From: a virus
Lineage: Duplodnaviria; Caudoviricetes
Direction: 5' to 3' (one strand)
IMG/VR virus record: IMGVR_UViG_3300021387_000175
Location: 1 to 64,000 of that record
Length of the DNA: 64,000 nucleotides
This document shows positions 31,901 to 53,017 of this stretch, piece by piece. The position numbers and the translations under genes were made by a program. Under the pieces are notes generated by a model, which was not told the origin of the DNA, made no database searches, and saw nothing but the letters and a program-made list of their open reading frames with translations. The stretch's first letter is position 1, and each line of letters begins with the position of its first letter.

Positions 31901-33771
31901 GTATCAAACAGAGATACAATTTTTGCATCTTTTCTATCTATTAATTTCTGCACAGACTGCTTTATATAAGTGCATTCATCTCCTGTAACTTTGGTAGTGA
32001 CTACTTCAGTATAAAGAATATGATCTCTTTCATCTATGGTATTTTTATAGCCAATGGTAGCTATAATAAACTTGCCTGTCCAAATACCATAACCGTTCTC
32101 ATCCTCTGCAGGTATCCAAGTATTATCTGATTCTTCATCAATACTAATATCATACACACCAGTATTACATAAACACTTTGCCAATTGAATGATGGCGCTG
32201 TTTACTACTGATATGGATGATGTGGTAGGATCCGTAACTGCAATCTCACCAAAATTCTTTGGATCTGTTAATATAGCAGCTGTGTCTTCCAACGAATCAT
32301 TATTAGTCACTACATCAGGAACCATGGAGTCCAGTACGAACTCCTCTATATCCAATGTGTTATAATAGATTTCTGCCAGAGTCTGGTAACCTACACATGT
32401 CTCATCTAGCTTCTGCCAAGCACCAATAGTGTCTTCTTCGAAGTGTCCTGAGATGAAATCTATAAAATCATTGTACTGTGATCTGTAATAGGAGAGAGGT
32501 TTCTTGTTATTATTGATAATCTCTTCATAATGAGTAGGAGTAGCTGTTCTGACGTATACTTCGAAATTATGATTCAGATTATAGATGCCCTTGTCCTCTT
32601 CAAGATCACCTTTATAATATTTCTGGTATTCAGTATTATAATCGTTTAATCTTTCCACCAAGTCTTCGGGCATTTCCATCAACTGTTCATCGGAATATTG
32701 ATAAATATAAGCACTGCCATTCGGATTCTGGTTGATGATGGCAGCGGTCATCAGATCGTCTCCACCTTCCATTCGAAAACAGTTTTTCAATTCATCCTTA
32801 TTAGTGGATACCGTAGCAGAGGATAGAAGATTATCATGAGAGACCAGTATTTTAGTATCCTTGCCATAACCATTTGTTACATGAGTACTTCCACAATAAG
32901 GACATTTATCCCTGAAATCTCCACGGTATCTGGTAAGAATATTCCGTCTTTTTTTCATATCCAGACGATAATCACATTCATCATTCTGACAGACACTGTA
33001 TAAATCATAAGCAGATACTGTTCGATCTACAGAGTCAAACTTGAACCAGACATGATATTGTTCTGCTACATCCCCTGTAAGGACGGAATATATATCTTCA
33101 TCATCAATAGCAAACTGATACCAGTCCGTTAAGTTGTATAATGTCTCATCTACATGTTTTATCTTGTAATTTTCTGCTTTATCTAATAATCTGTGAAGTA
33201 AGGAGACATGCTTCATACGTTTATAATCAGTTAACAAAAAGTTATACTGTGACAGATAACCCGCATAAGCACCTGTATCAATATCATCACGAGCCATTTC
33301 CGCTTTTAATGCTTCCATTTGTCTTTCATACTCAGACAGATCTCTGCAAAACACAGTATGGTATTCTGCATCCCATTCTGGATCATATTCCATTTCGAAG
33401 TCAGTGTTGATCTCCAGATCATACAATTTAGTATTGGCTAGTTCTGTTTCAGCCAGACCAGTGGCAGTAATACTTTTATATGTTCCGTCTTGTCCCTCGT
33501 CATAATTGACTTCTATTTCAAAATATTCACCACGGTCACCTAATTCAGGAACAAACAAAACATTAAAGTTGTTAATACGGTCCCAATAGGTATTGTATGC
33601 TCCATCTTTATATCTATGTACCGTGAAGGATATTTCATCTGGTTCATTAAAACTGTGTTTATATTTAACATCAGAAGCATGTATAGCACCAATTATGGTA
33701 TAGTCTTTTCTGGCTAGAAAAAATGATAAAGGCTTTACATACTGGTTATCTATAAATGAAAGATTCGCCAT
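28918..33771 (-). CDS. Tal-like tail-tip/central spike protein with C-terminal peptidase S74 chaperone (1617 aa)
   Basis: N-terminal prophage tail (gp27-like) motifs (EISFTV, KNCFRMEGG, FEVGNWIH..LRLLSYEID), 'GG.IAGW.I' gp58-like repeats, SDVRLKTNI. Confidence 0.8.
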   Translation of the reverse strand: MANLSFIDNQYVKPLSFFLARKDYTIIGAIHASDVKYKHSFNEPDEISFTVHRYKDGAYNTYWDRINNFNVLFVPELGDRGEYFEIEVNYDEGQDGTYKSITATGLAETELANTKLYDLEINTDFEMEYDPEWDAEYHTVFCRDLSEYERQMEALKAEMARDDIDTGAYAGYLSQYNFLLTDYKRMKHVSLLHRLLDKAENYKIKHVDETLYNLTDWYQFAIDDEDIYSVLTGDVAEQYHVWFKFDSVDRTVSAYDLYSVCQNDECDYRLDMKKRRNILTRYRGDFRDKCPYCGSTHVTNGYGKDTKILVSHDNLLSSATVSTNKDELKNCFRMEGGDDLMTAAIINQNPNGSAYIYQYSDEQLMEMPEDLVERLNDYNTEYQKYYKGDLEEDKGIYNLNHNFEVYVRTATPTHYEEIINNNKKPLSYYRSQYNDFIDFISGHFEEDTIGAWQKLDETCVGYQTLAEIYYNTLDIEEFVLDSMVPDVVTNNDSLEDTAAILTDPKNFGEIAVTDPTTSSISVVNSAIIQLAKCLCNTGVYDISIDEESDNTWIPAEDENGYGIWTGKFIIATIGYKNTIDERDHILYTEVVTTKVTGDECTYIKQSVQKLIDRKDAKIVSLFDTSDFDNPEKLNYNDRVANLNKFKTNLEHYSLNYLMNIVRPAYVDVQGVLLKASQDIQRIYNEYYLERRTAIDNAIAQREQQYIAILAIRRVLEQYREDTQSILNFASYLGEDLWKVFCNYRREDTYSNDHYVAEGLDNGEVIARAEDFIDQAQKELFKASHLQYEVSGNLYNLLNIPEFQPIMDEFEVGNWIHMQAMDKIYNLRLLSYEIDFNDQTELAVEFSTVEQLWSGASDIQSVLNAAGSIAGSYSSFAQQVRQNSAISKDVRSWVQEGLDATKIRYLNNPYTQEVTFDETGLWAKAYVDEEDRYKPGQLRILNSGLYTTSDSWNTIDAAIGAFTYYDPFSKHYIDDYGVIAKTVVGQLILGENLKIFNDDASLVMNDYGLEVTNNVNTFSVHPKSDRLLTMTAGNKTLLQLNDQGDLYVEGHINATSLTLGQNSTVTGLSTDKVTGIDNYLKKNVYVSSNGTVTTTKPTGDNVTYCGVNNNGLLEAQNAIIYGELHSTSGMVGGFTIKNGCLYTNNKILTTSTLNGVHLCADGIYLGPYSSTTKHCTFQVDNKGKLYATDGYFEGTINAAQGGNIAGWTILPANVSDKDDGRRIEFYDDNVEKWDFDGDGTKETGTVRCGIQALTKGTAVFYAGCKTAPGESIASSDSSKFFVTQQGHLYSYKATIENAVLSKVAITNGTLNNLTANALTVESGTFTGVTAENLKINTGMIFQNATIPNLTAIVMYERVQYGPMPNYVYTSDSGVKETSEPFVDLPPMFILDVHQVCCTDELYVEGKIEAPEIHTDHMHAKEILTPNIKLNTITHANTLALGSVTVTASDNSDYTPIGTTGSSSKGKVAVVRISKEGNVEVYGQSVENASSTPPVFGNYTSYTLASSTSDVRLKTNIKNTEVSSALNVINQIPLHSFDWKSTKQHQKIGMVADEIEAIDSDFVVGGGYDEEGNMNIKTINDFYLSGYFVKAFQEMTEEISYLQKEITDLRRQLNEYKED

Positions 33772-33922: not shown

Positions 33923-36900
33923 TCACGCATACTTATACTTACTCATGGAATTCTTACCTAATACCGCACCCAATGTCATATCCTGTACTGCGTTCTGGAA
34001 GTTACGATCAGCTACAAGAGCGGACTTGAACTCATCATAATTCTTCACATTAGGAAGTGTGATACTTAACTGAATGGTAGTATTCGGTGAGAGAGTAGTA
34101 TTAGTGGTATTATTGATGACAGGCTGAGATCCGAAAGACTTAGCAAACATATCGGGAATATTCATTTTCGCTAATTTCCAGAGATTATCTGTCATTTCAG
34201 CATTGAATACCGCATCACCTCTACCAAGAGGAGTGAGGATAGCACCATCAGACTTACGGATAATAGTCTCAAGACCTTTTTCCTGAGTCCAGGCATTCAG
34301 ATCAGTAGGAACTGATTTAATACCTGTGACATAATGCCATCTTGCATGATAAGCATCGGAATCTTCTTTCGCTTTATGATAGGCGTCTTGTGCTTCATCA
34401 AATCTGGTTTTAGCATTTGCAAACTGTACTTCCAACCTGTTTAATTGACGCTCTAACTCTTGTATTTCTCTTTCTTTGTTTTCGTAGTTCTGTTTCGCTT
34501 TTAATGCTTCTTCAGATAATTGTCCTACCCTTGATTGACCTTTATATTTAGTAAATTTACTACGTTCCTCTTGCCGTTCTTTGTTTAACTGAGAAATATT
34601 ACGTTTAGTCTCAGCGATTTGTTCATTTAAAGTATTAAAATTGGAATATGCCTCATCTACTGTTTTCTTTGCCTGTTTAGTTTTACTATCCTTATCAATG
34701 GTATTCATCTTTTTAGACAAATTCTTCACCGTTGTAACGGTAGTATCATCTAAGGCGTCTTTTTCTTCTTGAGACATTCCTTTATACTCTTTAATAATGG
34801 ATCTAACAGCATCGTAATCCTTTGCCTTTAACTCTTTTTCTTTGCCAACATATCCAGAGACTTTTTCTCTAAAAGCTGCTTTTGCCTGTTCTTCAGGCTG
34901 ACGGGCTGCATCATCTATTACAGATTTTACGGCAGCTTCAATACGATTTTGTAAAGAACCGTTTTCTTTTAAAGAGCCAACAAGATTATCAGTGATATTT
35001 TTATCTACTTGTTTCAAAGTGTTAACAGTATCTGTTGTGTTACTACTTACACCAAGTGCATCAATTTTATCAGCAAGTAAATCTTGCATCTTTAAAAGAA
35101 CTCTATCACGATCTTTCAGATATCTATCAATCCATTCTTGGAAGTTAGCAGACAAATCATCCAACATCTTTTGGGCATCAGATAAGTACTTACTATATTC
35201 CGCATCCCGGAGATCCTGTCTGGCATCTTTAATATCTTTCTGCAGTTTCTGAATCTTAGATACAGATTCCTCAGAGGTATTATTCTGCCAAGCAGCTAAC
35301 TGTTTCTCCAGATTGGTAATATTATTAGCCTTTTCAGTAATTTGTTTCTGATAATCATAGGCTTCTTTCTCGGCATTCTTTAACTCTTTATACTTACTGA
35401 TTGTTTTATTCAGAGCAGTAAGCTGTGCTTCATAACCTTGACGAGCCAAATCAATGACTGCCTGCTTAGATGCTTCAGCAGCTTCCATAGATCCCCAATA
35501 AGCATCCTGTAATTCATTCATACGATCAATTACTTCTTTATCTGTAGGATCTAATTCATTATCATTGATCTTTTTGACCAAAAGATTATACTCATGTAAA
35601 TACTGCTGTGCTTCCGCAAGATTTGCTTTATAATCCGTATTCTTCAGATCCAAAGCAGCCATACCATATTTAGTAATATTACCTTGATTATCTGTATCAA
35701 AGAACTGTTCGTTGGAAATCAGATTATAATAATGATCAATCTCAGAGTTCAAACGCTTCGCACGTTCAATACCATCATCAAATTTCTGCCAGTTAAGCTT
35801 CTCCATAGCCATAGCTTGCTCATGAATATCCAGATTCAATTCTTCAATAGAATCTTCCAATTCAGCTATGATTTGTTTCGCTTCAAACCATTCATCAGAA
35901 CCTACAGTTAAGTCCTTAAGAAGTTTTTGCTGTTTTGCTAATTCTGCATTATATTCAGCAAGCATAGAAACATCTTGACGAATAATGTTCTTATAATCAT
36001 TACGTTGAGCATAATGACCATAAGCCTCTGCTGCATCAATACGTTGTTGCGCTTTTGTTTTACGGCGGTCATACTTATAACGATCTTTTTCACCTTGATT
36101 CTGAACATTCTTCATCTTTTGAAGTCTGCGTTGTTCATTCTCTTTTCTAATGGTTTCTTTATTAATTTCCGCTTGTGCTTTTGCTTCACGTCCCTGTTCA
36201 ATTGCTTCATTATAACTCAAGCAAGCCTCTAAGAAGGATGCCTGAATATAACCCGCATTTACCAGTTCTGCAATTTCACCAATAGTGTCACCATCAATAG
36301 CCACTTTTGCCTTAATATTCTTTTGGACTTTAGCTAAGGCTTTTTCTACACGAGATTTGACTTTCTTATTTTCATTTGCATCATATTTCTCTGTAGTTGC
36401 ATTACCTTTCTTTAACGTGGTTTTTATTTTTGTGGCGTTCTCTTTCCTAAGCTTTGCAAATTTTTCAACTTTCGCCCGATCATTCTTTTTCTGTGCTTCC
36501 GCAATTTTAATTTGCTCATCAATTAATTTGTTTTGACCATCAGCTGTTGTTTTATTTTCAATTTGTTTATCACGAAGATTGATTTTATTTTGTAATCGCT
36601 CATTTTTGTTATCATACATTTGAGCGTAATTCTGATAGATCTGTTGAATGTTTTCAGCAACCGCCAACATTTCTTCCATTTTTGCATCTTCGAAATTTTG
36701 CAACGTCTGATTATAAACAACCAATTGAGCTGCCAATTGAGGATTCTTTTTCTCAATATAGCTAATATCTTTTTCTTTGACGGGTTTATTGTGATCCATC
36801 GCAGTTTTTATACGTTTTAATACTGTTTGATATTCTTTATGAGACTTTTTAACAGTTCCATTTTTAACCCGTTCTTTTTCTAGTTTAGCTTCTTCCTTTG

Positions 36901-39900
36901 CTAATAAAGGATCAAGTTCAATCGATACTTCTTTTGACGCTTCTTCAAAATCTTGAAGATTCTCTTGAGTGGCTTTTCTATGAATTCTAATTTGCTTTCT
37001 TCTTTGACGATTTTCATAACGAAGTCTGCCGTTAGAGTATTGATAAGCATTATCAGTTCTTGCTTCAAAGTTGCTTTGAGCAATTTGAATGAAGTTATCA
37101 GATAAACTAACTCCCGCATCACGTTGTGCATCATGAACTTCTTTTAATGATTTGGCATATTCACGAGCCTGGGCCTGAAGTTCTTGAAGGGCATTCTTAG
37201 CTTCAATAGCCTTATCAATCCATTCTTGAGTACCTTCAATTACTTTACGGGTATCTTCATCATAGCTATTGATATCAATTTCACCATTAAGAATTTTATC
37301 CCATAATGCATCTTGATTTTCTTTGGTTTTTTTAGGTATGCCCTTTTGGTTCATTCCCTTTTTGAAAACTTCTTCAGCTTGGGCATAGTATTTATCATAT
37401 GCTGCATCTTCATTGCCTATTTGCTCATATATTTTTTCTAAAGCATCTTTGTACTTTTTCTCTGATAAACCATATGCCATACGGTCAAGGAATTCTTCAG
37501 CGAGAGAGGAGAGTTGATCAATCTTAGTTTGAACACGCTCTATGCGGATTTCAATCCAATCAAAAAGTTTATCGAGGTATTTATCAAAGGCATCGGTCTT
37601 ATCTTTCTTTTTGGTGGTGGTTGAACGTTTTCCATCGCCGTTACCGCCACTGCCTTTACGCCTTCCACCGTTGCCATTACCGTCACCATCTTTACTATCT
37701 TTTTTAGGCTTCCGTTTAGTATTTACAGGTTCAATATTAACATCACCATTAATAATAATAGTACCATTATTACCCAATGTCTTATTTAAAGAATCTAAAC
37801 CAGTAGAACCACCTGCATAAGCTACTCCACGAGAATTTATAGAACCATATTTAAACAGTTCTTCTGTTTGTTTATGGTTGAAAATAATATCGCCTTTTTT
37901 AACGTCTCTGAATTCAGCACCAGATTCGCCCAGTAAATCCCATTTAGTACCACGTACACGGAGTTCTGGGCCGAGTTCACCTACAAGAGAGGGTTCTGTT
38001 TTCTTAGCACCTATTGTACCTGATGCAAATGCGTTACCTTTAAATAATGAAAAATGAGCATTGCCTTTATATGAACCTGGTCCATCACCATTACCATTAC
38101 TATTTTCACGGTTAATTTTAATTTTAATATTAACAGTACGATTCATTTTATTTAATTCGCTGTTAATATTAGATAAAACTGTTTTGGTTGAATTTGCTTC
38201 ACTATGCAAAGATCCTAACACTTTGCTACCACTAACAGAAACACCATTAATACTATTAATAGTATTTTTAGCAGTACGTGCCTCAGAAGAAATATTCTTT
38301 TCTTTAGAAGCTACCCCTTCAAGATTTCCACTTATAGAACTCAGACTAACATCATTAATTTTTCCAACGTCATTAACACTTGTATTGGCTTCTTCAGAAA
38401 TATGTGTTATACCTTCATCAAAATTAGTAGTATCTAAGGTGGCTTTATATTCAATAACTGTTTCTGTAGTTGTAGTTTCTTGTTTTGGTGCTTCTCCACC
38501 ATCACCATTCGGACCTTTTTGCTCCCGCTTATGAAGCTTTTTAGTATTGGTATTAACTTGTTGCCCACTTTGGTTTAATGCGGTTGAGGTTGTCAATCGC
38601 CCCATTGTTTGTTCTATCGTTGTTAAATTAGTGAGAAGTTGGTCAGAACCTAATGTACCTATTGTATAAGAATTAATAGTTGTAATTGCTTCACCCAAAT
38701 TTTGTGCTGCAGAAGCAGATTCTTCACTTATAGTCGTATTAAGATCTTTAATTGCTTGTTGAGCCTTTTTCGTATTTAATCTATCAGCTTCTTCTTGTAT
38801 TTGCTCAAAGGTTGTTTTTCCGCTTTCCCCTAATGATTTTATTGCTGTAGAAGAAGTAGTAAGATCTATATTATTAAATAGCGCACTTAATTGACCATTT
38901 GAAAGCTGATTCATTTCTCGTAAATCGCCAACAATACCTTCAATTTGTTCTCGTGCCTTTTGTCCTGCAGTACGATCCCCAGTTGCTTCAGCAATTTTAT
39001 ATGCTTGCGCTGCAGCGCTAAGTTCATTAATTTTTGCAGCAAAATCTTTTTCTGCTCCCTCTTCCATACCAGAGATATCAATTACATATGTCTGGTTGGT
39101 CAAGGCAGCTAATTGTGCTTGTGTATTTTTAATTAATTCATTAAGCGCTTCTAAAGACGCCTGACCATTTTCGGTATCAATAAAATCGCCATTTTCGTCA
39201 TATAACGCTTTTTTTGCTTCTTCTAACTTATTTAATGCAACGGTAGCATCAACAGCATTATCATACTCAAGATCAAAATCAATTTGATCATCCTTCTCAA
39301 GACCTTTATTTACAGTTTCTTTTAATTCCTCTAACTCTTCAGGAGTCTTAAAACTATCAACTGCAATTTTATATAATTCTATTTGACGGTTAGCATCGGC
39401 TATTGCGTTAGTGTATTGATTCCATAATTCAGAATTTTCTTCTATCTCTCCACTATTAAGACGCTCATTCATTTCATCAATAGATTTACTAAGCTCATCT
39501 ATAGTAGTCGGCGCTCCATCTAAAGGATCAAGAAGATCATAAGTTACTCCTGCATCAAGCATTGATTTCACCAATTCACTCGATACAGAGAATCCTTCTT
39601 TTCCTAATACATTTTGCATATAATCTGATATCGCTGCAGCAATCATTCCTTCGTCTCCAACAGCAAAATTCAAATCACCATTTTCGTCAAAGAAACGCTC
39701 CATTCCTGCTTGATGTAATGCTTTTTCCGTCATGTCAAGAAAATCATTTACACCTTCGTTATCATTAGTCATGTATTTTTTAATAAAGTCCGCAATATTC
39801 TTTTTTTGCCCATAGACTTTATCACCATTCATAGACTGACCCGTGATCATTTCCATATATGCAAGGACTTCAGGATCTGCCCAACGTTCATTGTCTAATT

Positions 39901-42847
39901 TACCCTTGATAGTATCCCATCCTCCACGGATGGTATCATACATAGTCGCATCAGATCCCATCTCTTGAGACTGTAACCATTTCTGATAAAGGCTATCAGA
40001 TACTTCGATCTGAGCATTCATTTTTGCCCAAGATGTTAATCTGGTCTGAATTTGACTTTGCTCTTGTGATAAAACACTAAGACGAGTTTTTTCGGCATCT
40101 GTTAATGCTTCACTCTTACTTGTGAGGCTTTCAATTTCTTCTTTATTCTTTTTATATTTAGTGGTTAATTTATCATATTGATCATTTAACTTCTTACTAA
40201 TATCATGTTTTTGAGTATTAATCATTTCCTGCGCAGCTTTTGCATTTAATTGCATGCCATTCGCACCTATAGAAATTGCATCTGCAAAACCTTGATATGT
40301 TTCAGTTAAAGATTCAAAAGTTTTTTGTGATAAAAAGCCATTCTTGCTTTGTTCTGCCATAGCAGAAGAAAGTGCTGTTGAAGATTCGGCCAATGTATTG
40401 ATTGCAGTATTCGTACTATCAGCGAATTCATTCCATTTATCAGCAGCTCTACCTGTAGTTGTTGCTGATACTAATTCAAATTGCTGCATTAAATTAATTG
40501 CGTCTTGAATAAAAGTAGGAGATTGGAAATCTACTAATCCTGCTCGACCAAATACTCTGGCAACATTCATTGCGGATTGTTGGATAGAAGAGTACTGATC
40601 TTCAGGAATTGTCCAATCAATTTCACTTAATTCTTCAGCACTAATTTCTTTAAGATCCTTTAATGCATCTGTATAATTATCTTTTAATTTTTCTTTTACT
40701 TTATCATTGATAAATTTATCTGGATCAAAAGTCATAATTTCATCGGCCTTTAAAGAGCCAATAATTTTTGACCATGAAGTACCTGCAATATAATGTGCAA
40801 TTCGATCATTTTCTGAGCCAGATAACATGCTCATCAATGAAGACTTTCTATTTTTAAATACCTGTTGAGTACTATCAATACCAAAAGCATCAATTAATTC
40901 CTGACGTTTATCTTTTCCAATATGAAGCGCATTCATAGCTGCATCAAGGCGCTGTTTCATAATATCTGCATAATCATTAACATCTATCTTGGATAAATCA
41001 GGAGAGATAAAATCTTTAAGTACTTGAGAAGCCTCGCCTGTAGCATCTGATCGAATAGTATCAACAAATTTTAAATAATCTTCAGCACTAATTAATGCTT
41101 CTTTTGAAAATTGCTGTAAATATGCAACTCCATCTTGTGTTACTTGACTATCCAAGCTAAGATCGGGCGTAATTTCAGCATATGATTGTTTTAAATAATC
41201 AACAGCATTTTGATAACTCTCTTGTGCCGATGTTATTTCAGCGTAGTATTGCTTAATTTGATTTTCTAAATCTGTAATAACTTTTGACTTCGATTCATTC
41301 CGATATTTTGCTTCACCCGTAAAGCTATCGTAATCATAAGCTACCTTTACAGTATCGCCCTCTTGTTCTTGAATTTCTTTAATTTGTTGCTTTAATTTAT
41401 CTATTTTTCCTTGATTTTCTGCGGTTTTATCGTCAACCGCTTGCTTTAAAGCAGGTATTCCTGCATTAGAAGAAGGATTCACTAAAGAATCAATATTAAA
41501 AGAAGTTGCGTCAATTATAGCCCCTTCTTTTGCTTGGGCGAGTTCCCTATATTTATTAATCTGATCTTGAATAATTTCAGTATTTGCGAGAATAGCATTA
41601 CCTTCACTATCCCAACCAGTAACTAATTCAGGGAATTGTTCTGCAATTTGTTGACGAATAGCATAATATTCTTCAGATCCTGCTTCAGCTTCTCTATACT
41701 GATCCAAAAGATGCTGAAGAGAATTGGCGCTATTATTATATTCATCATATTCTTGTTTGAGTGCGTCTGCTTTCTCTTTACTGGAATCAATAAGTTTTTG
41801 ATTACGCTTGGCTACAGCATCAAGGCTCATTGAATAATTATCATAAGCAAATTTTGCTGCAGCAGCAACTGCAGCAATCGCAGCAATGACTAACGCAGCT
41901 TTACCAAGAGTGGTTAAATGTATTCCCGCTTTTTGAGCTGCTTCTCCAACTCCATTTATCGCATCGGAAGCATCTGTAGCAGTACCCACCACTTCACTGG
42001 ATACACCTAAATACATTTCCCAAGCTTCACTTGTTCCTTCGGCTGCTTCTGTTACAGTGTTTACAGCTTCACTTGCTCCTTCTGCTGCGGGTGTCACCTC
42101 ATAAAAACTATGAATAACATTTGAAAGCAATTCAGTTATACCAATTTTATCTTTTCCCGCTTTCAAGATTGTACCATATATAGCAAAACCTGCTCCTGCT
42201 ACTGATGGAATTAAACCTATAGCATTAACAACTTCCATTACCGCTGACGCAAGATCAAGAAAAAAGTTAATGGTTTCACGATTTGCAGTCCCTGCCCAGG
42301 CTTGTTGCCATTGGTTCTGAAGAACTGCAAGATGGCCTGAGATAGAATCCATGTATTTCTCATTTTCTTCCATAGCAGAACCAAAAGAAGCTTGAGAAGA
42401 TTCATAAACGTCTCGTAAAACATCTTTGTTTTGTAATATCGATGCGACAATGTTCGCTCTATTTTTTCCCGCTAACGTTTCGAGCAAACCATTCGCACGG
42501 TTCGTGCCATATTGTTTATCTGTTGCAATTATTTCTTCATAGACATCTGCAATATCCTGAAGAATTTCATACGTACTTCTGAAATTACCGTTTTCATCAA
42601 GTATATCTACACCTTTAAAGCCATTACTGGCTACAGCAGTGTAATCTTTAATTATTTGTTGAGATTTCGCTGATGTTTGGACTACAAAGTCATCTACGTC
42701 TTCTCCAAGATCAGCAAGTTCGGCCTTGGCTTCCTCTGTGCCAACAATTCTCAAAGCAACCGTTCTCATTGCATTGCCGACCTTTTTAGGGTCTTGCACC
42801 ACTGCATTCCCGGCAGTAATTAAAGCGATTGCTTCATCAATGTCATT
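33923..42847 (-). CDS. tape measure protein, exon 2 (spliced product 5364 aa)
   Basis: Begins NDIDEAIALITAGNAVVQDPKKVGNAMRTVALRI, the continuation of the conserved TMP domain; has TM segments, a 'LVGELGPE...GAEF...GDIIFNH.QT' block and long coiled coils. The track's GTG start at 42802 has no RBS. Confidence 0.9.
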   Translation of the reverse strand, partial: NDIDEAIALITAGNAVVQDPKKVGNAMRTVALRIVGTEEAKAELADLGEDVDDFVVQTSAKSQQIIKDYTAVASNGFKGVDILDENGNFRSTYEILQDIADVYEEIIATDKQYGTNRANGLLETLAGKNRANIVASILQNKDVLRDVYESSQASFGSAMEENEKYMDSISGHLAVLQNQWQQAWAGTANRETINFFLDLASAVMEVVNAIGLIPSVAGAGFAIYGTILKAGKDKIGITELLSNVIHSFYEVTPAAEGASEAVNTVTEAAEGTSEAWEMYLGVSSEVVGTATDASDAINGVGEAAQKAGIHLTTLGKAALVIAAIAAVAAAAKFAYDNYSMSLDAVAKRNQKLIDSSKEKADALKQEYDEYNNSANSLQHLLDQYREAEAGSEEYYAIRQQIAEQFPELVTGWDSEGNAILANTEIIQDQINKYRELAQAKEGAIIDATSFNIDSLVNPSSNAGIPALKQAVDDKTAENQGKIDKLKQQIKEIQEQEGDTVKVAYDYDSFTGEAKYRNESKSKVITDLENQIKQYYAEITSAQESYQNAVDYLKQSYAEITPDLSLDSQVTQDGVAYLQQFSKEALISAEDYLKFVDTIRSDATGEASQVLKDFISPDLSKIDVNDYADIMKQRLDAAMNALHIGKDKRQELIDAFGIDSTQQVFKNRKSSLMSMLSGSENDRIAHYIAGTSWSKIIGSLKADEIMTFDPDKFINDKVKEKLKDNYTDALKDLKEISAEELSEIDWTIPEDQYSSIQQSAMNVARVFGRAGLVDFQSPTFIQDAINLMQQFELVSATTTGRAADKWNEFADSTNTAINTLAESSTALSSAMAEQSKNGFLSQKTFESLTETYQGFADAISIGANGMQLNAKAAQEMINTQKHDISKKLNDQYDKLTTKYKKNKEEIESLTSKSEALTDAEKTRLSVLSQEQSQIQTRLTSWAKMNAQIEVSDSLYQKWLQSQEMGSDATMYDTIRGGWDTIKGKLDNERWADPEVLAYMEMITGQSMNGDKVYGQKKNIADFIKKYMTNDNEGVNDFLDMTEKALHQAGMERFFDENGDLNFAVGDEGMIAAAISDYMQNVLGKEGFSVSSELVKSMLDAGVTYDLLDPLDGAPTTIDELSKSIDEMNERLNSGEIEENSELWNQYTNAIADANRQIELYKIAVDSFKTPEELEELKETVNKGLEKDDQIDFDLEYDNAVDATVALNKLEEAKKALYDENGDFIDTENGQASLEALNELIKNTQAQLAALTNQTYVIDISGMEEGAEKDFAAKINELSAAAQAYKIAEATGDRTAGQKAREQIEGIVGDLREMNQLSNGQLSALFNNIDLTTSSTAIKSLGESGKTTFEQIQEEADRLNTKKAQQAIKDLNTTISEESASAAQNLGEAITTINSYTIGTLGSDQLLTNLTTIEQTMGRLTTSTALNQSGQQVNTNTKKLHKREQKGPNGDGGEAPKQETTTTETVIEYKATLDTTNFDEGITHISEEANTSVNDVGKINDVSLSSISGNLEGVASKEKNISSEARTAKNTINSINGVSVSGSKVLGSLHSEANSTKTVLSNINSELNKMNRTVNIKIKINRENSNGNGDGPGSYKGNAHFSLFKGNAFASGTIGAKKTEPSLVGELGPELRVRGTKWDLLGESGAEFRDVKKGDIIFNHKQTEELFKYGSINSRGVAYAGGSTGLDSLNKTLGNNGTIIINGDVNIEPVNTKRKPKKDSKDGDGNGNGGRRKGSGGNGDGKRSTTTKKKDKTDAFDKYLDKLFDWIEIRIERVQTKIDQLSSLAEEFLDRMAYGLSEKKYKDALEKIYEQIGNEDAAYDKYYAQAEEVFKKGMNQKGIPKKTKENQDALWDKILNGEIDINSYDEDTRKVIEGTQEWIDKAIEAKNALQELQAQAREYAKSLKEVHDAQRDAGVSLSDNFIQIAQSNFEARTDNAYQYSNGRLRYENRQRRKQIRIHRKATQENLQDFEEASKEVSIELDPLLAKEEAKLEKERVKNGTVKKSHKEYQTVLKRIKTAMDHNKPVKEKDISYIEKKNPQLAAQLVVYNQTLQNFEDAKMEEMLAVAENIQQIYQNYAQMYDNKNERLQNKINLRDKQIENKTTADGQNKLIDEQIKIAEAQKKNDRAKVEKFAKLRKENATKIKTTLKKGNATTEKYDANENKKVKSRVEKALAKVQKNIKAKVAIDGDTIGEIAELVNAGYIQASFLEACLSYNEAIEQGREAKAQAEINKETIRKENEQRRLQKMKNVQNQGEKDRYKYDRRKTKAQQRIDAAEAYGHYAQRNDYKNIIRQDVSMLAEYNAELAKQQKLLKDLTVGSDEWFEAKQIIAELEDSIEELNLDIHEQAMAMEKLNWQKFDDGIERAKRLNSEIDHYYNLISNEQFFDTDNQGNITKYGMAALDLKNTDYKANLAEAQQYLHEYNLLVKKINDNELDPTDKEVIDRMNELQDAYWGSMEAAEASKQAVIDLARQGYEAQLTALNKTISKYKELKNAEKEAYDYQKQITEKANNITNLEKQLAAWQNNTSEESVSKIQKLQKDIKDARQDLRDAEYSKYLSDAQKMLDDLSANFQEWIDRYLKDRDRVLLKMQDLLADKIDALGVSSNTTDTVNTLKQVDKNITDNLVGSLKENGSLQNRIEAAVKSVIDDAARQPEEQAKAAFREKVSGYVGKEKELKAKDYDAVRSIIKEYKGMSQEEKDALDDTTVTTVKNLSKKMNTIDKDSKTKQAKKTVDEAYSNFNTLNEQIAETKRNISQLNKERQEERSKFTKYKGQSRVGQLSEEALKAKQNYENKEREIQELERQLNRLEVQFANAKTRFDEAQDAYHKAKEDSDAYHARWHYVTGIKSVPTDLNAWTQEKGLETIIRKSDGAILTPLGRGDAVFNAEMTDNLWKLAKMNIPDMFAKSFGSQPVINNTTNTTLSPNTTIQLSITLPNVKNYDEFKSALVADRNFQNAVQDMTLGAVLGKNSMSKYKYA

Positions 42848-43288
42848 CGATTTATTATGAGTTTAAAACTCACTTTTTTATTATGCAATGCATAATAAAA
42901 ACTGCATCTTTCGATGCAGTCCAGACTATTTCTTCATCTTCAGCTTTACCTGTTAAGAGTACCCTTTTCGATTTAAGAGATTTTCACTCACATATTAAAT
43001 ATATGCCCTACGATTATTGATTTAAGTATTCAGGATTTCCACCTTTATTCTCTTGCTTAAATCCCGACATGGATCTAGTCGTTGAACGTTCACCCTCGAC
43101 TCAAGCACCGTATGTTCTACAGAATACGTTAGGGTGCTTCGCTGCATGAACAGCCAATCCTTACGTTTTAAAACCATCATAATATAGTTTCCTTATTATT
43201 GTGGTGTAAGGCTCTAAGGCATTACCTGCAATTAAGAATATTCATATAATACATTTCTGTATTATCAGGCAATTAGACATTTCTTTTT
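42848..43288 (-). ncRNA. group I self-splicing intron (441 nt, no homing endonuclease) in the TMP gene
   Basis: 5' exon ends GCAGGU and pairs with IGS GCCUG (43266..43270, G.U at the splice site). P AAUUGCAGGUAA (43222..43233), Q CAUGCAGCGAAG (43137..43148), R GUUCAACGACUAGA (43074..43087), S AAGAAAUAGUCU (42923..42934); terminal G at 42848. Removal gives in-frame SLKTAG|NDIDEAIA. Confidence 0.93.
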
Positions 43289-46200
43289 ACCTGCTGTTTT
43301 CAATGAACTTGCAGACAACTGCAATGCCGTTGCCAGTCCATCAGTACTAATTGAAAAATTGTTACCTACATTATTAAGCTTATCAATGATATCAAGTTTG
43401 TCTAAATCATCATAAGCAGCGCTCATAGCTACTAAACTTTCAGTAGCCTCATCTATACTTCCAAACTCAGATACATTAAATAAAATAGCAGCATCTTTTG
43501 CAGATTCTTTTGCGTCATCAAGCGTCTCTCCAAGCCTCATCCAGTCGGCAGTACTTTGCTGAATAGTTAATCCAGTAGTACCTACGCTGTTTGCCATATC
43601 ATAGCTTTCTTTTTGGAAATCACGAAGACGGGAGAGTGGTTCATCAGATACTTTTGCCATTTCTGTCAGAGCATCATCTAACTGATGAATAATATCAAAA
43701 CCCTCACGAGCATAACGAATAAAATCTTGAAAACTTACATAGGATAAGAGATAAGCACCAAAATCACGGAATTTCTTGGTTAACTTTGTGGCAAAAGTAT
43801 CACCAGTTTTTCCTGCTTCACGCATCGTTGTTTCAAGTCTATTGACCTGGTCAATAGCATTGTTTAACGATTGTTGATTAACATTCTGTAAACCATCACT
43901 AATTTCTTTTAATTGATTTCGAATTTCTCCACCCATCGCAGGATTTTTTTCGATTAAAGTAGCAATCCGTTTTTTCAAGTTACTTACATTCTTATCTAAT
44001 ACTTGAATATTATCTGTATTACCCAACGCCTTTTGTAAGTCATTGACTTTTACTATTAACTCACCAATTTCTTTGATATCTGACTCGTTTGTAATATCCA
44101 AACCATTTTTTAATTTTGCTTGTAAGCTATCAATAGTCTTATTATATTCTTCTAATTGCTTTTTATAAGCAGTAGTATCAACTGCTCGTTCTTGATCAGC
44201 AAATTCTTGAAAACTATCTCTTTTTTTTACTGCTTTATCTAATGTACTCATAGCAGATTTAGTCAAATTTTGAGAAGCATCATCTAATGCTTTTTTGACC
44301 TTGGCATCCGATTTAGGATCGGTATCAGTACGATCTGCTAATAATTTTGTTCGTTCCTGAAGTTTATTAACGATTTGAGAATATGCTGTATCAAAAACTT
44401 CCTTTGTTCCTGAATCAAAAGCATCTTTACCTAAAGAACCAATATTTTTAATCAGCCCTTCTTCGGTAGTATACGAAGCGTCTAATGCTTGCTTTTTTTG
44501 TTTTTGTGATTCTCGTTCACTCTTTTTTCTTTTTCTTTCATTTTCACGTTCTTCTTTTTCAATTTCTTTATTTAATTCTTTTTCTTCTTTGGCTTGTTGT
44601 TTTTGTTCATCCGCTTTTTTCTTGGCTACATCTTTTTTGTGTTGAGCAAAATGTGCTTCACGATCATCTAATTTTTTAGCTTCCTCTAACTGTTTTAAAT
44701 TTTCTTCCTTTTTCTGCCGTATATTCTCATAAGACTGCCTTTCTTCATCCGTTAAAAGAGCAATCTTTTCATTTAATTGATTATCAATATCTACTAAACT
44801 CTGAGTACGCTGAGTAGCGGTAACATTATCTTTTGCGGGATTAGTAACATCCGTTTCTAATAATTTATAACGTTTATCCAACAATCCTTTAACTGTGTCA
44901 AATGCTTTAGCAACATTTTCCTCCATACCAGTTTCTACTGTCTTTTTTACAGTCTTGCTTTCAGGATCATATTTATAATTAGTGCGCCATTTTTTCTTTA
45001 TACCGTTTTCATCAGTTTCTTCATAATCAACAGAATATCTGGACATATTACCAAATTCATCTTGGGAATAATGCTGATTTCTTCTGTTATAATCATTAAA
45101 ATATTTTTCGTCCTCAGAAATTGCTTTTAATAAAGCTTTATGAGTTTCTTCACTTAGTCTTTCTTCTTCATCTAAATCGGCTTTCTTATCTTTTTCAGTT
45201 TTTGATTTCTTGGCATTTTTTTCTTCGTTTGTTTTTTCTTCTTTTTCTTGATCGGTTTGTTTCTGTAATTCCAAACTTTTTGCTATTGATGAAAAGTCAG
45301 TTTGATTTAATGTTTCAAAGCCCTTATTCAACTGCTTTACTAATTCAGAAATGTACTCTAATTCTTCCCTTAACTGTTCAATAAATTCTACTTCGTTCCA
45401 AATTACTCCTTCTACTGTTGTGTTTTCATCTTTAAAAGCTTGTGTTTTATTTTGTATTGCTGTGTTAACATGCTCTATTGCTTGACCTAATTTTTGAAGT
45501 TCGTTAGTTTCTTTGGTAAAATCTAAAGATTGACCAGTCGTTTCTGTAGTATTTCTGATTTGTGCAATTGCTTCGTTTAATGATGGGATTACTGTCTTGA
45601 TTTTTTCAACTGTATCAGTCAATGGCTTGATTTGATTCTGTAAATCTATATTTTTACTAATTGAAGAAAAATCAGTAGTGTTTAATATATTAAAAGATTG
45701 ACCTAATGTAACAGCTAATTCAGATACCGCTTTTAATTCTTCCCTTAGTTGCTCGATGAATACTACTTCATTATAAATTACTTGTTCTACTGTAGAGTTT
45801 TCTGCTTGAAAGGCTTTTGTTTTTTCATCAACTGCAGTTGTTACTTTTATAACTGCATCTAAAAGATTACCAACTTGGGTTGCTTCCCCTGAAAAGTCTA
45901 TTGACTTACCAGTAGTATCTATTAGTCTTTTTAACTCAGTTGTCACTTCAGTTAAAGGAGCAATTATTTTTGTGATTTCTCCAAAACTAGCAGATAGTTC
46001 CTGTACGTTTAATTGACTTCCTGAAAAAATATCCCGAAGTATATTCATTTGATCATCAATTTCAGTTATGGATTGAGTATCTATTTGTTTTAATGCAGTT
46101 TCATAATTATCGAATATTCCACCAAATTGTGTTTCCCAGGAACTAATATCAATATTGCCGACTTTTGCCATCTCTTTCATTAAAGAAATAACTTCTTTAT

Positions 46201-49200
46201 AATATTGAATAGTTGAAGTAAGATTCTTTTGATCATAACCCTCATAACCTTTCCACGCTAACTGGACCTGTAAATCAGACCCTCCATTAGCACCAATTGA
46301 TTCTTTAAAAGAATCGGTTCCAGGTTTATAAAGCATTTTCATTAATGCATCAGATGCTTCTTGTATTTGTGGTATAAACGATCTCTTTACCTGTCCCTCT
46401 TCACGACTCTGCTTAATTGGGTTGTTACTTTTACCTAATGCTATATTAAAATTAAAATTACCAATCTGTTTAATTGATTCATTGATCGTATTTAATATGG
46501 TATTTACGTCTGTAAACGGCTTTGTAAAATCCATATTCTTAATACTATTAGCTAAATCCCTTATCTCACTTAAACTATTTTTAATTGTATTGAAAGATCC
46601 TAAAGGATCTGTTGAAGCCAGATAATCAATTCCGACTTTAATTTTTTCCAAAACATCAGACAGTTCTGTAAAAGAGGATGCGAAATCTAAATGGCTTAAG
46701 GTCTCAAGTGTCGTACTAATCGTACTAATACTTGTTTTAAATTCTTCAAAAGAAGAGAAGGCATCTAAGTTCTTTAATGCTTGTAATTCTGTTACAAGAT
46801 TTTGAACTAAAGTAATAAGTACTCCAAAAGCTTCCGCATAATCACCAGTCATTTGACTAGGATCGAAATCCATAGTAAGATCATTTAAGTGTTCTTGTAA
46901 ATGTTCGTATTGATTAGCGTATTGTTGATAATCGTTTAAATAATGTTCATACCATCCTAAATAATCTTTTGCCTGGTCTTCATTACCTTCATTTGAAGAT
47001 GCAGCAGCATGTTGATAATACCAATCCATATTATCTAATGCAGCGTCCCGTTCTTGTTTAACACTCTGCAATTCTTCTGATATTTTTTTTATATCGTTCC
47101 AATCATCTATGTCCCAATAATCCTGATAATCTTTATTATCCGCTTCTGCTCTTAACTGTCTTTTTTCATCAGCTAATTTTTGAAGTTCTTCTCTGGTTTT
47201 GGCAATTATTTTATATTCTTCTTCCGTTTGGGGAGAATTTATATTATCAAAATCTGATGTAAATGACTCTTTAGAACGAATATCATTTAATACTTCTTCT
47301 AAAGATAATACTTCAGTCTTAACACTTCCAATATCATCTGTTAAATTTTCAAATCCATTTTCTTGTAATATTTCAGTAGGAAATTCTTTTAATGACGCAA
47401 ACATTTTTTCAAACGCTTCAACAGTTTGAGGAAACTCTTCTTGAACAGATGAGTCTAAACTATCATAGATTTGTCTGATTTTAGAAATAAACTCATCCAT
47501 TTCAGGACTGATATCACCAATGCTTCCACCCAGTGCTTCAAAAGCATTCGCTTGTTTTAATAAATTGGATACTTTTCCTGATCTAAGAAAATCTTCTTCA
47601 CTAATATTCCCATTATCCCAATCAGATAACAACTGCTTTTTATTTAATAATCCATTCCATCGTTGCCGTAATCTTTCTTCCGAAGCTTCTGGAGATTTAA
47701 AGTAAGAACTTAAATCATCTGTATCTTCGTCCAAAATACTTTGCAATCTATCAGAAATTTGTCGTCTAGAACGCTCTCTAAATTCTGTAACTTGTTGTTC
47801 TAAGAGATTTAAAGCATCATCATAATATTGAACATTGGCTGCCGTCTCAATAAATCTATCATCCATAAAAGGACTGGAATCATTTTCTACATCTTCTTTG
47901 TATATAGCTTCTAATTTCTTTCTTAATTCTTCCTGACGCCATTCTTTTTCTTCGGCAACCTTTTGCATTTGATCCAAATACTTTGTAATTAATTCATCTG
48001 GATCTCCATCATATGGATCAGGGCCAAAGAAATTTTCAAATAATTTATCAGGATCAAGTTGGGAATATTGATGTTCATCCAGTATTTTTTGTACCTTTTG
48101 TGAAACTTTTTTTCGTTCTGTTTCTCTTTCACTTTCTTGCGTTAACATTCCAAATAAATCAAATTTTTCTACAGGCGGCGCTGATTTTATAGATTCACCA
48201 TATTGATTTTCTACGGCCTTTGTAGTTTCGTCTTCAGTTTCACGTAACGCATCTGCTAATTGTCGTTCTGCATCTAATTCTTCATGGATTTTATCAATAT
48301 TTTCTTCCCTGGCTTGTACTTCTTCACGAATATTTTCAGTTTGACTTTCATCCTCGGTAGAAGGGGGTTGAATATTATTTTCTTCTTTTTTTACTCGAAG
48401 TAATTCTTCACGAGCCTGCGTTTCTTCTTGGATATCTAAAGCATTACTATCCCGTTCTTTCTTTTTTGATTCTCTTTCTTTCTCTTTTAATTCATTATTT
48501 TCTTTATGGTTTAATATCCCTTGATTTTGTGAAACAGCTTCTTGAACCATTGCAGCGGAATATTGCGCAAATTCTTGTTTATCAAAAATATGGAATATTT
48601 CATCCATATTCTCAATTCCGTATTTAAGTAGCACGTCTTTTATTGAATTTTGTAATTCATTTTTTGCTTCGTCATACGAAGAGTATTCTTTCTTTTTATA
48701 TTTAATTTGATCTAAATCTGATATAACTGAACCACGAATATTTTTAGGTATTGCATTTAAATCAAGAAAAGATACATTATCTTTAGTAACTATAGCATGA
48801 ATAGCAGTATTTCTTTCTTCCTTCCAATCTTCATTCGCATATCTACGCCATGTATCAATATCAGAATGTCGTGCTTTAGAACCCGTTGTTTTTGTGGTTG
48901 AAGGAATTGCCATTCCTGAACTTCCATCATTATTATTTGGATGTGTATGTAAAGTGAAAAGCGCACCTTTTTCATGCACGTGTGAGGATTTTTCACCACC
49001 TTCTAGAATATCTGAAAAATCTCCATTTGCTTTTATATAAAATCCCTTTTCATTTCCTTCGGTATCAATATCTATGATTTTTTTTATAACTTGATCTAAG
49101 TTAGGAATTTTACTTAATAATCTTGCAGAACTTAAACCGATTTCATTCGCTCTACGTTGCTCGGCTGCAGATGGTACATTTTTTCCAAAATTTTCAATAT

Positions 49201-50458
49201 CATACATATCTGCAAATTGCTGTTCTTGCCAATTTTTACTTCTTAAATATCCATTTCGTCTATTGTTAATATAACTAAATTCTGCTAAGTCAGTAGGAGA
49301 GTGGATAGAAACACCATTATTATAAAATTCAGAATATTTCTCTCTATCTATATTATGAAAAATTATATTATCAACTTTATCTCCTCTCCCCAAGGCTTTT
49401 TGTCCTGCGATAGTTTTAAAGATCTCTGCACGATTTTCATCTAATTGATTACTTATTGAAGTATATTCTGCATCAGACAAAGATTCGTCATTTAATGATT
49501 CTTGTAATTCAAAATTTTTTGCTATTAGTGTTTTGATTTTTTTGACAAAATCTTCTTCTGACAATAAATAACTACGAAGATAATTTTCCCGTTGTTGCTT
49601 AACCTCTTCAGTTAATTCTGGTAATTGGCTTGATGTTATTTCCAAAGATTTTTCTTTTTTTGACTTAGGAAGTGGTTTAGTTTGATTTTTACTAGAAGTA
49701 ATAGAAGATGCTAATTTACTATAAGATCCTCCATCCAATGCTTCTTTTTGTTGTTCTACAAAAATTTTTATATCTTTATCTATTAAGTCGTTTTTTATTA
49801 AGTCTTCACTATACATATCTGCTTCTTCCAAATATGTATATAACATTTGTAATGCACGTTTTACCACATCTTGAGTATTATAAGTTAAACTTTCTACTAA
49901 TCCTTGATAAGGCTTTTTGTAATATTCTATCATTTTTTTGTTTAAACCTTGATCAGTAGCATTTAATCCTTCGGCAAAATTTGCTTCTTTAATATATTTT
50001 TTTAACGTGTCAGGATCTTTGAAATCACCATAATTAATTAATCCATTATTTTGCGATGCCAAAGCATGTAACAACTTAGGTAAAATTTCTTTTGCGTCTG
50101 CAATATCTTGTTTATCACTGTTACTTTTTAATACTTGAATGGCATCATTTATTTCATATCGAATATTTTCCGGGCTTCCTAAATCTAATAATTTTTGTAA
50201 TTTTACATCTGACTTTAATCCCGCTCCTAACCCAGTAAGTAATTTGTTTAAAGATTCTACTTGCTCAACAGTCATATCGGCTGACTTCGCTAAATCTTCA
50301 AAAAAGTTTTTTTGTTTCTTCGCATCTTTAACACGAATTATAACATCAATAACTTGTGTAATTGTTGCAGGCTGCCCTGTGCCCTTTATTCTACCTAATA
50401 ACTCATTAAGCACTGCTTCTGGTTTAATAGGAGAACCTGAACCTAATTTTTCTGCCAT
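43289..50458 (-). CDS. tape measure protein, exon 1 (long N-terminal extension with JAB/MPN-like motif, then start of the TMP domain)
   Basis: AGGAGGTGA RBS; C-terminal part LDDALTEMAKVSDE...ADWMRLG..NVSEF..IDEAT..L..DKLNNVGNNFSIS..GLA.AL..SAS.L is the TP901-type TMP domain. Confidence 0.9.
45270..45915 (-). repeat. tandem ~90-aa duplicated unit in TMP exon 1
   Basis: TTGKSIDF...KTKAFQAENSTVEQVIYNEVVFIEQLREEL...LNTTDFSSI versus TTGQSLDF...KTQAFKDENTTVEGVIWNEVEFIEQLREEL...LNQTDFSSI. Confidence 0.85.
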
Positions 50459-50529: not shown

Positions 50530-51258
50530 ATGATTAAAATTTTAGAAATTAATGAAATAACCTATTCCATTATTTCGATCTATCATGATTTTTCCGATTT
50601 TAAATCTTTAAGATATTGGTTATACAAAAATCAATATACGTATATGTTTTTTGCCGAAGATATATTCTTTACATTTTCTAGTTTTGATGATTATCCCAAT
50701 TATATGTGTTTGCCTATATGTATCAAAATATGGGATAATCACAATAAAGAAAATGATTTTGTAATTAATGCATTAAAGAATGAAGGATATTTTGTTTTTA
50801 TTGTTGATCCTGGATACAAAAAAGAAGAATATAGATTTTGGAGCCGTAAACACAATGTATGGTATGTTGTTAAGTACGAATATTATAAAATCCAAAATAA
50901 TTACGTTTTAATAAAAATAGAAGATGAAGATGAAAATAATCTAGGATATTGTTGGAAATATATTCGTAAAAATAACTATGGGAAAAAATTCAATTGTAAT
51001 TCTACGATTCTGACTAGAAATATGATAGAAGAAGGATTAAAAATTGAATCAAACATACCCGATAGAATCAAACGACATTTTGTGCGATATCTTAGAAATT
51101 GTAAAGCTATGATAGGCACTAATTTTTTCTATCTTGAAAATGAAGAACAAAGCTATCCAATTAAAATAAAATTTGAATTGGATAATTATTATTTGTTAAA
51201 AAAAGCTATTTTGCAAATGCACAATTATATAAATAATATTATCGATATAGTTGAATAA
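50530..51258 (+). CDS. AT-rich antisense orphan gene (moron), function unknown
   Basis: 242 aa, own promoter and RBS, fills the gap between two minus-strand genes without overlap; rich in Tyr/Ile/Asn/Lys. Confidence 0.75.
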   Translation: MIKILEINEITYSIISIYHDFSDFKSLRYWLYKNQYTYMFFAEDIFFTFSSFDDYPNYMCLPICIKIWDNHNKENDFVINALKNEGYFVFIVDPGYKKEEYRFWSRKHNVWYVVKYEYYKIQNNYVLIKIEDEDENNLGYCWKYIRKNNYGKKFNCNSTILTRNMIEEGLKIESNIPDRIKRHFVRYLRNCKAMIGTNFFYLENEEQSYPIKIKFELDNYYLLKKAILQMHNYINNIIDIVE

Positions 51259-52450: not shown

Positions 52451-53017
52451 CTAGTTTTCCTTATATTTAGCACAAACTCCCTCGACTATTTCATCCTGGA
52501 TCCGGCCTTCCATTGCCTTACGAAGAATTGAACAGTTTCTATCATACCGTTTACAGGTTTTGCATTTATCTTCAAAATAATTAGCGGAAGCTTGATTATC
52601 AAACACTCCTACAAAATCTACAGGATAAATAGTCAATTCAATATGTGGATTTTTATTATCGTACATAACCTTTAAAATGCGATTACAAACCATATTATCA
52701 TCTAACCAAACCACACCAGAATCTGTAATAGCATCAGAAATGCACTTATCATAATTAGCGCAATCCATATCGGTCCTTGGAAAATAATAAACCGCATCAA
52801 CATAATAATGCTGATACGGATTTTCACTTTTTATCCAACCTTGTTTTTTCGCCTCTTGTTTTACATATTCTGTAAATCGTTTCTGGAAGTCTTTCGCTTC
52901 TTTTGTCTTATAGGACATTGCCATAGGTTTTCCATTTTTATACATTACACGATATGCAAGATAGTGATTCACTGAAATGAATTCATTTACGGTGAGTTTT
53001 AATACTTGCTTTTCCAT
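52451..53017 (-). CDS. rusA: RusA-family Holliday junction resolvase
   Basis: SVNHY, 'YFPR..MD..N..K...DA' and 'VW.DD..V' RusA catalytic pattern; C-terminal CxxC...C...C extension. Confidence 0.75.
   Translation of the reverse strand: MEKQVLKLTVNEFISVNHYLAYRVMYKNGKPMAMSYKTKEAKDFQKRFTEYVKQEAKKQGWIKSENPYQHYYVDAVYYFPRTDMDCANYDKCISDAITDSGVVWLDDNMVCNRILKVMYDNKNPHIELTIYPVDFVGVFDNQASANYFEDKCKTCKRYDRNCSILRKAMEGRIQDEIVEGVCAKYKEN

Follow-up and report, generated by a model that had tools for sequence, protein, structure and literature searches.

Can the tape-measure protein of a tailed phage carry a metalloenzyme of the JAB superfamily, and if so, what might such an enzyme do? The question is raised by virus record IMGVR_UViG_3300021387_000175 (Duplodnaviria; Caudoviricetes; 136,099 bp, estimated completeness 88%), the first 64 kb of which (64,000 nucleotides, hereafter the window) were analysed here. 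An earlier note, made from these letters alone, had pointed to a motif like that of the JAB/JAMM zinc isopeptidases within the first exon of a giant tape measure, carried by a minus-strand open reading frame (ORF) of 2397 amino acids (aa) at 43265..50458 (P0001). We find that the motif residues are invariant in all relatives found, that the module around them is present in some related tape measures and absent from others, and that several weak signals converge on the JAB superfamily. The result is a JAB-like domain that is outside every existing family model, and we see about an even chance that aa ~447-566 form a highly divergent JAB/JAMM (MPN+) enzyme domain with a full catalytic set, carried with the virion.

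Invariance of the motif residues

The canonical JAB/JAMM motif reads E-Xn-H-x-H-x7-S-x-x-D. Four sequences (those of the window, P0002, P0003 and L002) were aligned over 311 columns (alignment A3, in which position equals aa minus 354); their identities are 24-45%, and 33 of the 311 columns are invariant, among them those of E470, G472, F473, H504, T505, H506, P519, S520, D533 and W537. The window has 10 histidines within aa 355-665, of which only H504 and H506 are invariant in the four sequences. Five residues (E, H, H, S, D) had been named in advance from one sequence, and all five fall in invariant columns, which is more than chance (hypergeometric probability of 5/5, ~1e-5). The order E...HxH(P)...S...D, as the earlier note had read it from the window, is therefore borne out in all four sequences, its coordinates included (Table 1), and so is the conservation of H504, H506 and D533, on which that note had made the idea depend.

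The same holds for the insertion of about ten residues that had been described between PS and D: 12 residues separate S520 from D533, versus two in the canonical motif, and the insertion is lineage-specific, the gap measuring 10-11 aa in P0002 and P0003 and the insertion being missing from L002, which reads PS-PK-D and is the only member with canonical S-x-x-D spacing. An extra insertion of 5 aa between HTHP and PS, absent from the earlier note, sets the window apart from its homologues. Both window insertions are low-confidence loops in the AlphaFold2 (AF2) model described below.

The domain family is tiny, with three relatives found. A phmmer search with aa 355-665 against 1.84 billion representative proteins returned two proteins at an expect value (E) <= 0.001: P0002 (2387 aa, 44% identity to the window domain) and P0003 (1615 aa, 24% identity), the latter identical in sequence to locus L001. 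Scanning metagenomes by pattern recovered two loci from 595 matches, namely L001 and the new, partial L002, and no relative was present among 321 pattern matches in viral contigs or 191 in genome contigs. Word-indexed searches added none (the query itself and P0002 among 1843 candidates; P0003 alone among 8000), and DNA and protein BLAST against GenBank phages gave no match. All four members are N-terminal parts of tape measures and are preceded by similar small ORFs.

Table 1. Positions of the motif residues, the JAB-like core and the tape-measure features in the window
Feature	Positions	Strand	Basis
NEKGFYI, aa 469-475	49034..49054	-	earlier coordinates confirmed by script
HTHP, aa 504-507	48938..48949	-	earlier coordinates confirmed by script
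AIPS, aa 517-520	48899..48910	-	earlier coordinates confirmed by script
SDID, aa 532-535	48854..48865	-	earlier coordinates confirmed by script
HAIVT, aa 554-558	48785..48799	-	earlier coordinates confirmed by script
E470, candidate general base (E-x-G-F)	49049..49051	-	invariant 4/4; paired by hhalign with the Glu of Toxin-JAB1
H504-T-H506, candidate metal ligands	48941..48949	-	invariant 4/4; aligned to the H-x-H of RadC, Prok-JAB and Toxin-JAB1
S520 of the P-S motif	48899..48901	-	invariant 4/4
Lineage-specific 12-aa loop, S520 to D533	48863..48898	-	alignment; pLDDT <50 at model residues 168-175
D533, candidate third metal ligand, helix N-terminus (D-x-x-x-W)	48860..48862	-	invariant 4/4; model helix starts at residue 179
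JAB-like core, aa 447-566	48761..49120	-	AF2 secondary structure, hhalign registers, Foldseek
Conserved accessory module, aa 284-697	48368..49609	-	BLASTP against L001 tape measure; four-sequence alignment
Tape-measure exon 1, aa 1-2390	43289..50458	-	exon end inferred from colinearity with the uninterrupted L218 tape measure
Group I intron, 441 nucleotides (putative boundaries)	42848..43288	-	Rfam RF00028 and colinearity with L218; splits the PhageMin_Tail domain
Tape-measure exon 2, ~2974 aa (coordinates include the stop)	33923..42847	-	phrog_4211; in frame with the listed ORF 33923..42802

A split tape measure with an N-terminal accessory module

The ORF that carries the motif was rightly labelled as exon 1 of a tape measure: phrog_4211 ('tail length tape measure protein') matches exon-1 aa 2195-2390 with its profile positions 551-746 (E 1.3e-24) and continues on ORF 33923..42802 with positions 765-1583 (E 1.2e-42), a group I intron lying between the two. 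The profile is thus colinear over both exons, and a tail fibre gene follows downstream at 28918..33771. A local Rfam search placed RF00028 at 42902..43298 (-) with 48.8 bits (gathering score 50; E 2.8e-11), and no family reached its gathering score across the whole window. Excising 42848..43288 fuses ...SSLKTAG to NDIDEAIALITAG..., giving a product colinear with the L218 tape measure, and the exon-2 side of the junction after ...SSLKTAG reads NDIDEAIALITAGNAVVQDP...; the boundaries of the intron would accordingly be those in Table 1, and the exon-1 ORF as listed reads past the exon end to a stop at 43265, within the intron. PhageMin_Tail scores 20.6 bits on exon 1, below its cut-off and over profile positions 6-111 of 201 only, versus 57.5 bits in the uninterrupted L218 homologue; colinearity with L218 suggests that the score is low because the intron cuts the domain. 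The spliced protein would be ~5,360 aa long (4,286 aa in L218), which at the usual scaling of 1.5 A per residue implies a tail of ~700-800 nm. A Pfam search found no known lytic domain in exon 1 or exon 2.

Two of the relatives end in ways that touch on the intron. P0002 terminates with the same intron read-through tail, KKKCLIA. The ORF of P0003/L001 instead runs for ~15 more codons before it stops (...ITAG followed by ERLPEI...), pointing to another insertion site, distinct from this one, in that phage.

The JAB-like domain lies within a conserved block, aa 284-697 (~410 aa), that matches the L001 tape measure at 25% identity (E 2e-36, BLASTP) and is common only to the four tape measures of this family; the C-terminal region of exon 1 is also common to the window and L001. 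As had been claimed for the motif, the block sits inside an N-terminal extension, of ~830-900 aa: the L218 tape measure can be aligned to exon 1 by BLASTP only from aa 919 (L218 aa 91), and that of L219 only from aa 2109. L218 lacks the extension itself, and for L219 and L220 it is the absence of the domain that was established. The A3 profile was also run over three phage records that are related to the window (PhageMin_Tail region 66-68% identical) and found no match, either in the loci or in the whole records (67-80% complete). The earlier note had also raised the possibility that homologous tape measures swap other enzyme domains into this position; presence or absence was the only variation seen, and the corresponding N-terminal part holds no Pfam domain in either L218 or L219. 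The pattern provides a natural comparison, among related giant tape measures, for the role of the module.

Directly N-terminal of the JAB-like module, at aa ~344-357 (49390..49430, -), the motif AEI[FY]K.IAGQK[AS].G is strongly conserved in all four members. It could be a recognition or a processing/cleavage site.

Predicted structure and fold neighbours

An AF2 model built from A3 (model residue n is aa n+354) reached a predicted local distance difference test score (pLDDT) of 65.7 and a predicted template-modelling score (pTM) of 0.65; the single-sequence model had a pLDDT of 43. The modelled core consists of a helix, a strand after E470, a strand ending in H504/H506, the S520 loop, the D533 helix and two further strands, and the segment is predicted to be alpha/beta, with no coiled coil. 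E470 stands just before its strand, H504 and H506 close a strand, and D533 opens a helix; in JAMM enzymes the Glu, the end of the HxH strand and the Asp at the helix start are arranged in this way.

Foldseek searches of this model against the PDB placed chains of the RadC structure 2qlc in five of the top six rows (E 0.11-0.58, probability up to 0.69, template-modelling (TM) score on the target 0.39-0.49), the remaining row being a chain of the 26S proteasome. Among the 12 named rows at E<1 in BFVD, seven are RadC, JAB or MPN proteins, two a 'Peptidase' or 'Metalloprotease', two a 'Minor capsid protein' and one a deaminase. The check by AlphaFold and Foldseek that the earlier note had proposed has a divided outcome: RadC/JAB proteins are the best named neighbours, and none of the PDB matches is significant (best E 0.11, TM <=0.49). 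The eight best BFVD matches, among them A0A8S5TR93 and A0A8S5MAK6, come from tailed phages, giant viruses and an archaeal rod-shaped virus, which hints at a wider unnamed viral family that may share the fold of the model.

Profile comparisons and language-model neighbours

When A3 was compared by hhalign with JAB-superfamily profiles, P-values were 0.013-0.044 for RadC (120 sequences), 0.0023-0.0057 for Prok-JAB (30 sequences, from the 66 of 301 genomes that had a match) and 0.002-0.03 for Toxin-JAB1 (11 sequences, ~80 columns). HxHP, PS and D were in register in every comparison, and Toxin-JAB1 also paired the Glu and the helix preceding it. Column-shuffled versions of A3 matched the observed scores in 0/60, 0/60 and 1/60 trials. 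With the same set-up, accepted JAB families matched one another over a range from P 1e-6 to 0.1 (Toxin-JAB1 with RadC, 1.3e-6; Toxin-JAB1 with Prok-JAB, 3.7e-5; Prok-JAB with RadC, 2.1e-4; DUF4329 with Prok-JAB, 0.0059; DUF4329 with Toxin-JAB1, 0.1), and the A3 values fall inside it. A scan of viral contigs for lambda gpK gave at least 80 loci of 97-100% identity, which were unfit for a profile and were not used.

Neighbours in the ESM Atlas, which we treat as leads only, were sought for the domains of the window and of L002, which are 24% identical to each other. The nearest named clusters were Toxin-JAB1 (0.87 for the window domain and 0.90 for L002), viral proteins containing Prok-JAB (0.85 and 0.90) and DUF4329 (0.86 and 0.89); a Phage_min_cap2 cluster also lay at 0.86.

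Four other assignments were rejected. For a relationship to DUF4329 (PF14220), the phage's own genome gave no match at E <= 10 and hhalign P-values were 0.11-0.33; the cupin motif, G-x5-H-x-H-x3,4-E, begins with a G and ends with an E that A3 does not conserve. In M23 and other LAS-type peptidases HxxxD precedes HxH, the opposite of the order found here, and the HxHxDH of metallo-beta-lactamases is absent.

Comparison with known JAB domains and virion-borne enzymes

Toxin-JAB1 (PF15659), a JAB-like domain family found in the polymorphic toxins of bacteria, gave the best hhalign match (P 0.002), and in the ESM Atlas no named cluster lies nearer to two of the members. The family shares with our domain a helix, a strand beginning E-aromatic, HxHP, a variable loop, (PS) and a D-x-x-x-aromatic helix. 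Among its own sequences the loop that leads from HxHP/PS to the Asp may be missing altogether or tens of residues long, so the atypical insertion in the window has precedent in a curated JAB family. In both cases an enzyme head, putative in ours, is fused to a delivery protein; the domain studied here differs in missing the stretch that joins the early strands to HxH, in having a tape measure as its carrier, and in standing at the N-terminus rather than forming a C-terminal tip.

Prok-JAB (PF14464) has the same E-x-G, HxHP and PS-x-x-D elements, with the motif in register at P 0.0023, and, through the JAB part of the lambda tail protein gpK, which we take to be Prok-JAB, it offers a precedent for placing a JAB domain in the tail module of a phage (the lambda K record is annotated only as 'C40 family peptidase'). 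It differs in its spacing from H to S (7, versus 8-13 here), in having a helix before HxH that our domain misses, in giving no HMMER match, and in belonging to a small tail-tip assembly protein rather than being embedded in a tape measure. RadC (PF04002; 2qlc) is the best solved-structure match, its HxHP...PS..D aligns, and its JAB domains occur in large injected phage proteins, the polyvalent proteins, which in PMC5512222 is the only form in which JAB appears. The structural match is at E 0.11 with TM <=0.49, the hhalign P-values are 0.013-0.044, and the context of the Glu is different.

Tape measures are known to carry lysozyme/SLT, M23 and Rpf motifs, cell-wall hydrolases that are usually central or C-terminal. 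Like them, our domain is a putative catalytic domain that lies inside a tape measure and would leave with the virion; unlike them, it is JAB-like by prediction and N-terminal. Effector enzymes fused to the virion proteins MuF or portal, presumed to be delivered at infection, are described in PMC5512222, and these fusions, like the polyvalent proteins, join a conflict enzyme to a structural protein of the virion; the carrier here is a tail tape measure, and the text of that paper mentions none.

A putative virion-borne hydrolase and its alternatives

We consider it quite probable that the domain has a JAB-superfamily fold. Because Glu 470, His 504, His 506, Ser 520 and Asp 533 are all kept, it is most likely a zinc-dependent hydrolase, putatively active and probably an (iso)peptidase. 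The JAB-like domain is the centre of the aa ~284-697 block, within the extension borne by some, but not all, related giant tape measures. Tape measures lie within the lumen of the tail and are released from the virion at infection, so the enzyme would be expected to travel with the virion, and its substrate may be a host or defence protein met during ejection or immediately afterwards; MuF and other head proteins carry fused effector domains in a comparable way. The fold, the binding of metal, catalysis, delivery and the target are all matters that we infer from the motif, its neighbours and its setting.

Several results weigh against this interpretation, and they fall on its two halves. As regards the fold, HMMER searches of Pfam, PHROGs, NCBIfam and PADLOC with the four members found no JAB family at E up to 1-10, and sequence searches of the PDB with the single sequence and with profiles returned noise only. 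The domain was not matched by Toxin-JAB1 (cut-off 21 bits) or by Prok-JAB (cut-off 25 bits), each of which hit only the separate RadC ORF of the phage's own genome (11.8 and 18 bits). The structural searches gave no match at E <= 0.001 among 142 in the PDB, all with TM <0.5, and in BFVD the eight best matches (E 3e-5 to 1e-3) are all uncharacterised. The model itself is of medium confidence and built from four sequences, with a pLDDT of ~60 for the helix after D533, and from its second strand to the HxH strand there is not enough room for the helix that Prok-JAB and RadC have at this point. Between H and S lie 8 residues (13 in the window), where the canonical motif has 7. The hhalign probabilities are 1-14%, and with ~10 comparisons run a P of 0.002 is marginal after correction. 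As regards delivery, the N-terminal end of a tape measure is expected to exit the tail last, and the domain is N-terminal; moreover, three globular copies would fit poorly in the tail tube. Of the earlier interpretation as a JAB metalloenzyme, then, the motif, its invariance and the JAB-clan neighbours stand; no significant match in sequence or fold was obtained. Noise-level HMMER matches were to Ketoacyl-synt_2, FCH, GrpE, ATP synthase, FliG, REase_II and similar families, and RadC (PF04002) gave no Pfam match at E up to 10 with four segments of 289-311 aa or with shorter core pieces of the window and L002.

A JAB-like enzyme might instead serve tail morphogenesis, trimming the tape measure (for example, its N-terminal ~830-900 aa) or processing another tail protein, an alternative that we consider unlikely. 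Removing the extension would keep its extra length from adding to the length of the tail. Several phage tape measures are proteolytically trimmed, and for the JAB domain of lambda gpK, processing of tail proteins together with the ubiquitin-like gpI has reportedly been proposed. The enzyme is here joined covalently to a protein of tail morphogenesis; a related tape measure, that of L218, does without the extension; the conserved motif just N-terminal of the domain might be where it is recognised or cut; and a globular N-terminal module is a poor fit in the tail tube. These points are set against the observation that no ubiquitin-like or Gly-Gly substrate was identified, that a Prok-JAB search of the phage's own genome revealed no Prok-JAB/gpK-type protein or partner, and that a module that removes itself would be odd to keep with invariant residues at 24% identity.

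The failures in HMMER, Foldseek against the PDB (E >= 0.11, TM <0.5) and hhalign (<= 14%), the unnamed best matches in BFVD and the missing helix before the HxH strand would also be expected of a small metal-binding or structural domain from outside the JAB superfamily, in which the order E / HxH / S / D arose by convergence. We regard this as doubtful: five independent kinds of weak evidence converge on the JAB superfamily and no other assignment is consistently favoured, the whole motif, Glu included, aligns in register to Toxin-JAB1, L002 has the canonical S-x-x-D, and the residues occupy the secondary-structure positions seen in JAMM. Nor do LAS/M23 peptidases, with their opposite motif order, or cupins, whose residues are not conserved here, provide a home for it.

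A JAB fold could also act on nucleic acid or nucleotides, which seems to us rather improbable. The N-terminus of the tape measure would adjoin the DNA end, RadC 2qlc is the closest solved structure and RadC-named viral models recur in BFVD, and PMC5512222 argues that the RadC JAB domains of injected polyvalent proteins may process nucleic acids. Against it, hhalign was weaker for RadC than for Prok-JAB or Toxin-JAB1, the E-x-G-F context of the Glu is like that of the latter two and unlike that of RadC, and an ordinary RadC gene is present elsewhere in the same phage.

One can also picture a virion-borne deconjugating isopeptidase that strips Bil-type ubiquitin-like tags from tail proteins or undoes other conjugation-based immunity, as the earlier note had envisaged. 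Bil systems reportedly target or tag the central tail fibre (bioRxiv 10.1101/2023.09.04.556158), and linkage to the tape measure would place such an enzyme both at tail assembly and at entry. The other functions that the note had suggested, a toxin or processing of the tape measure itself, would likewise be conjectural. Nothing links the window phage to a Bil-type system, and we treat reversal of tagging in this phage as speculation, of very low probability; if true, it would be the first known counter-defence enzyme carried by a tape measure.

That the motif is a coincidence in a non-enzymatic, mostly helical protein is essentially refuted, since, although HxH within 30 residues of S and D is not rare in 2397 aa, five residues are invariant in 4/4 sequences at 24% identity and the segment is predicted to be alpha/beta rather than coiled coil.

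Full-text literature searches, with supplementary domain tables outside their scope, found no JAB domain within a tape measure. What we describe is probably an enzyme domain of the JAB superfamily that is new, divergent and very rare, and whose setting is also new. If the putative hydrolase is active, the tape measure would be one more virion protein that conveys conflict enzymes to the host cell, and the JAB superfamily would gain a branch so minimal and divergent that the present family libraries do not pick it up. It would also be a concrete candidate for one of the tape-measure-trimming proteases that have long escaped identification, or for the means by which a phage counters the tagging of its tails with ubiquitin-like proteins.

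Neighbouring genes and a separate RadC-family protein

Between the start of the tape measure and the upstream tail genes, a 242-aa ORF (50530..51258, +) lies on the opposite strand and has no PHROG match. Just upstream of the tape measure, a 188-aa ORF (52451..53017, -) matches PHROG families labelled 'RusA-like Holliday junction resolvase' (phrog_34, E 6.8e-22); within a structural block this is either an odd location for such a gene or a misleading family label.

Outside the window, the same phage encodes the separate RadC-family JAB protein mentioned above, a 156-aa product (HNHPTGDPTPSNED) at G000:C1:91671..92141 (+) (L004:1228..1698). It has 4483 relatives at E <= 1e-5, with PF04002 in 120/120 among the matches listed, and in the genome-contig scan its top matches (best 80 loci) are mostly from Bacillota, many of them Lachnospiraceae.

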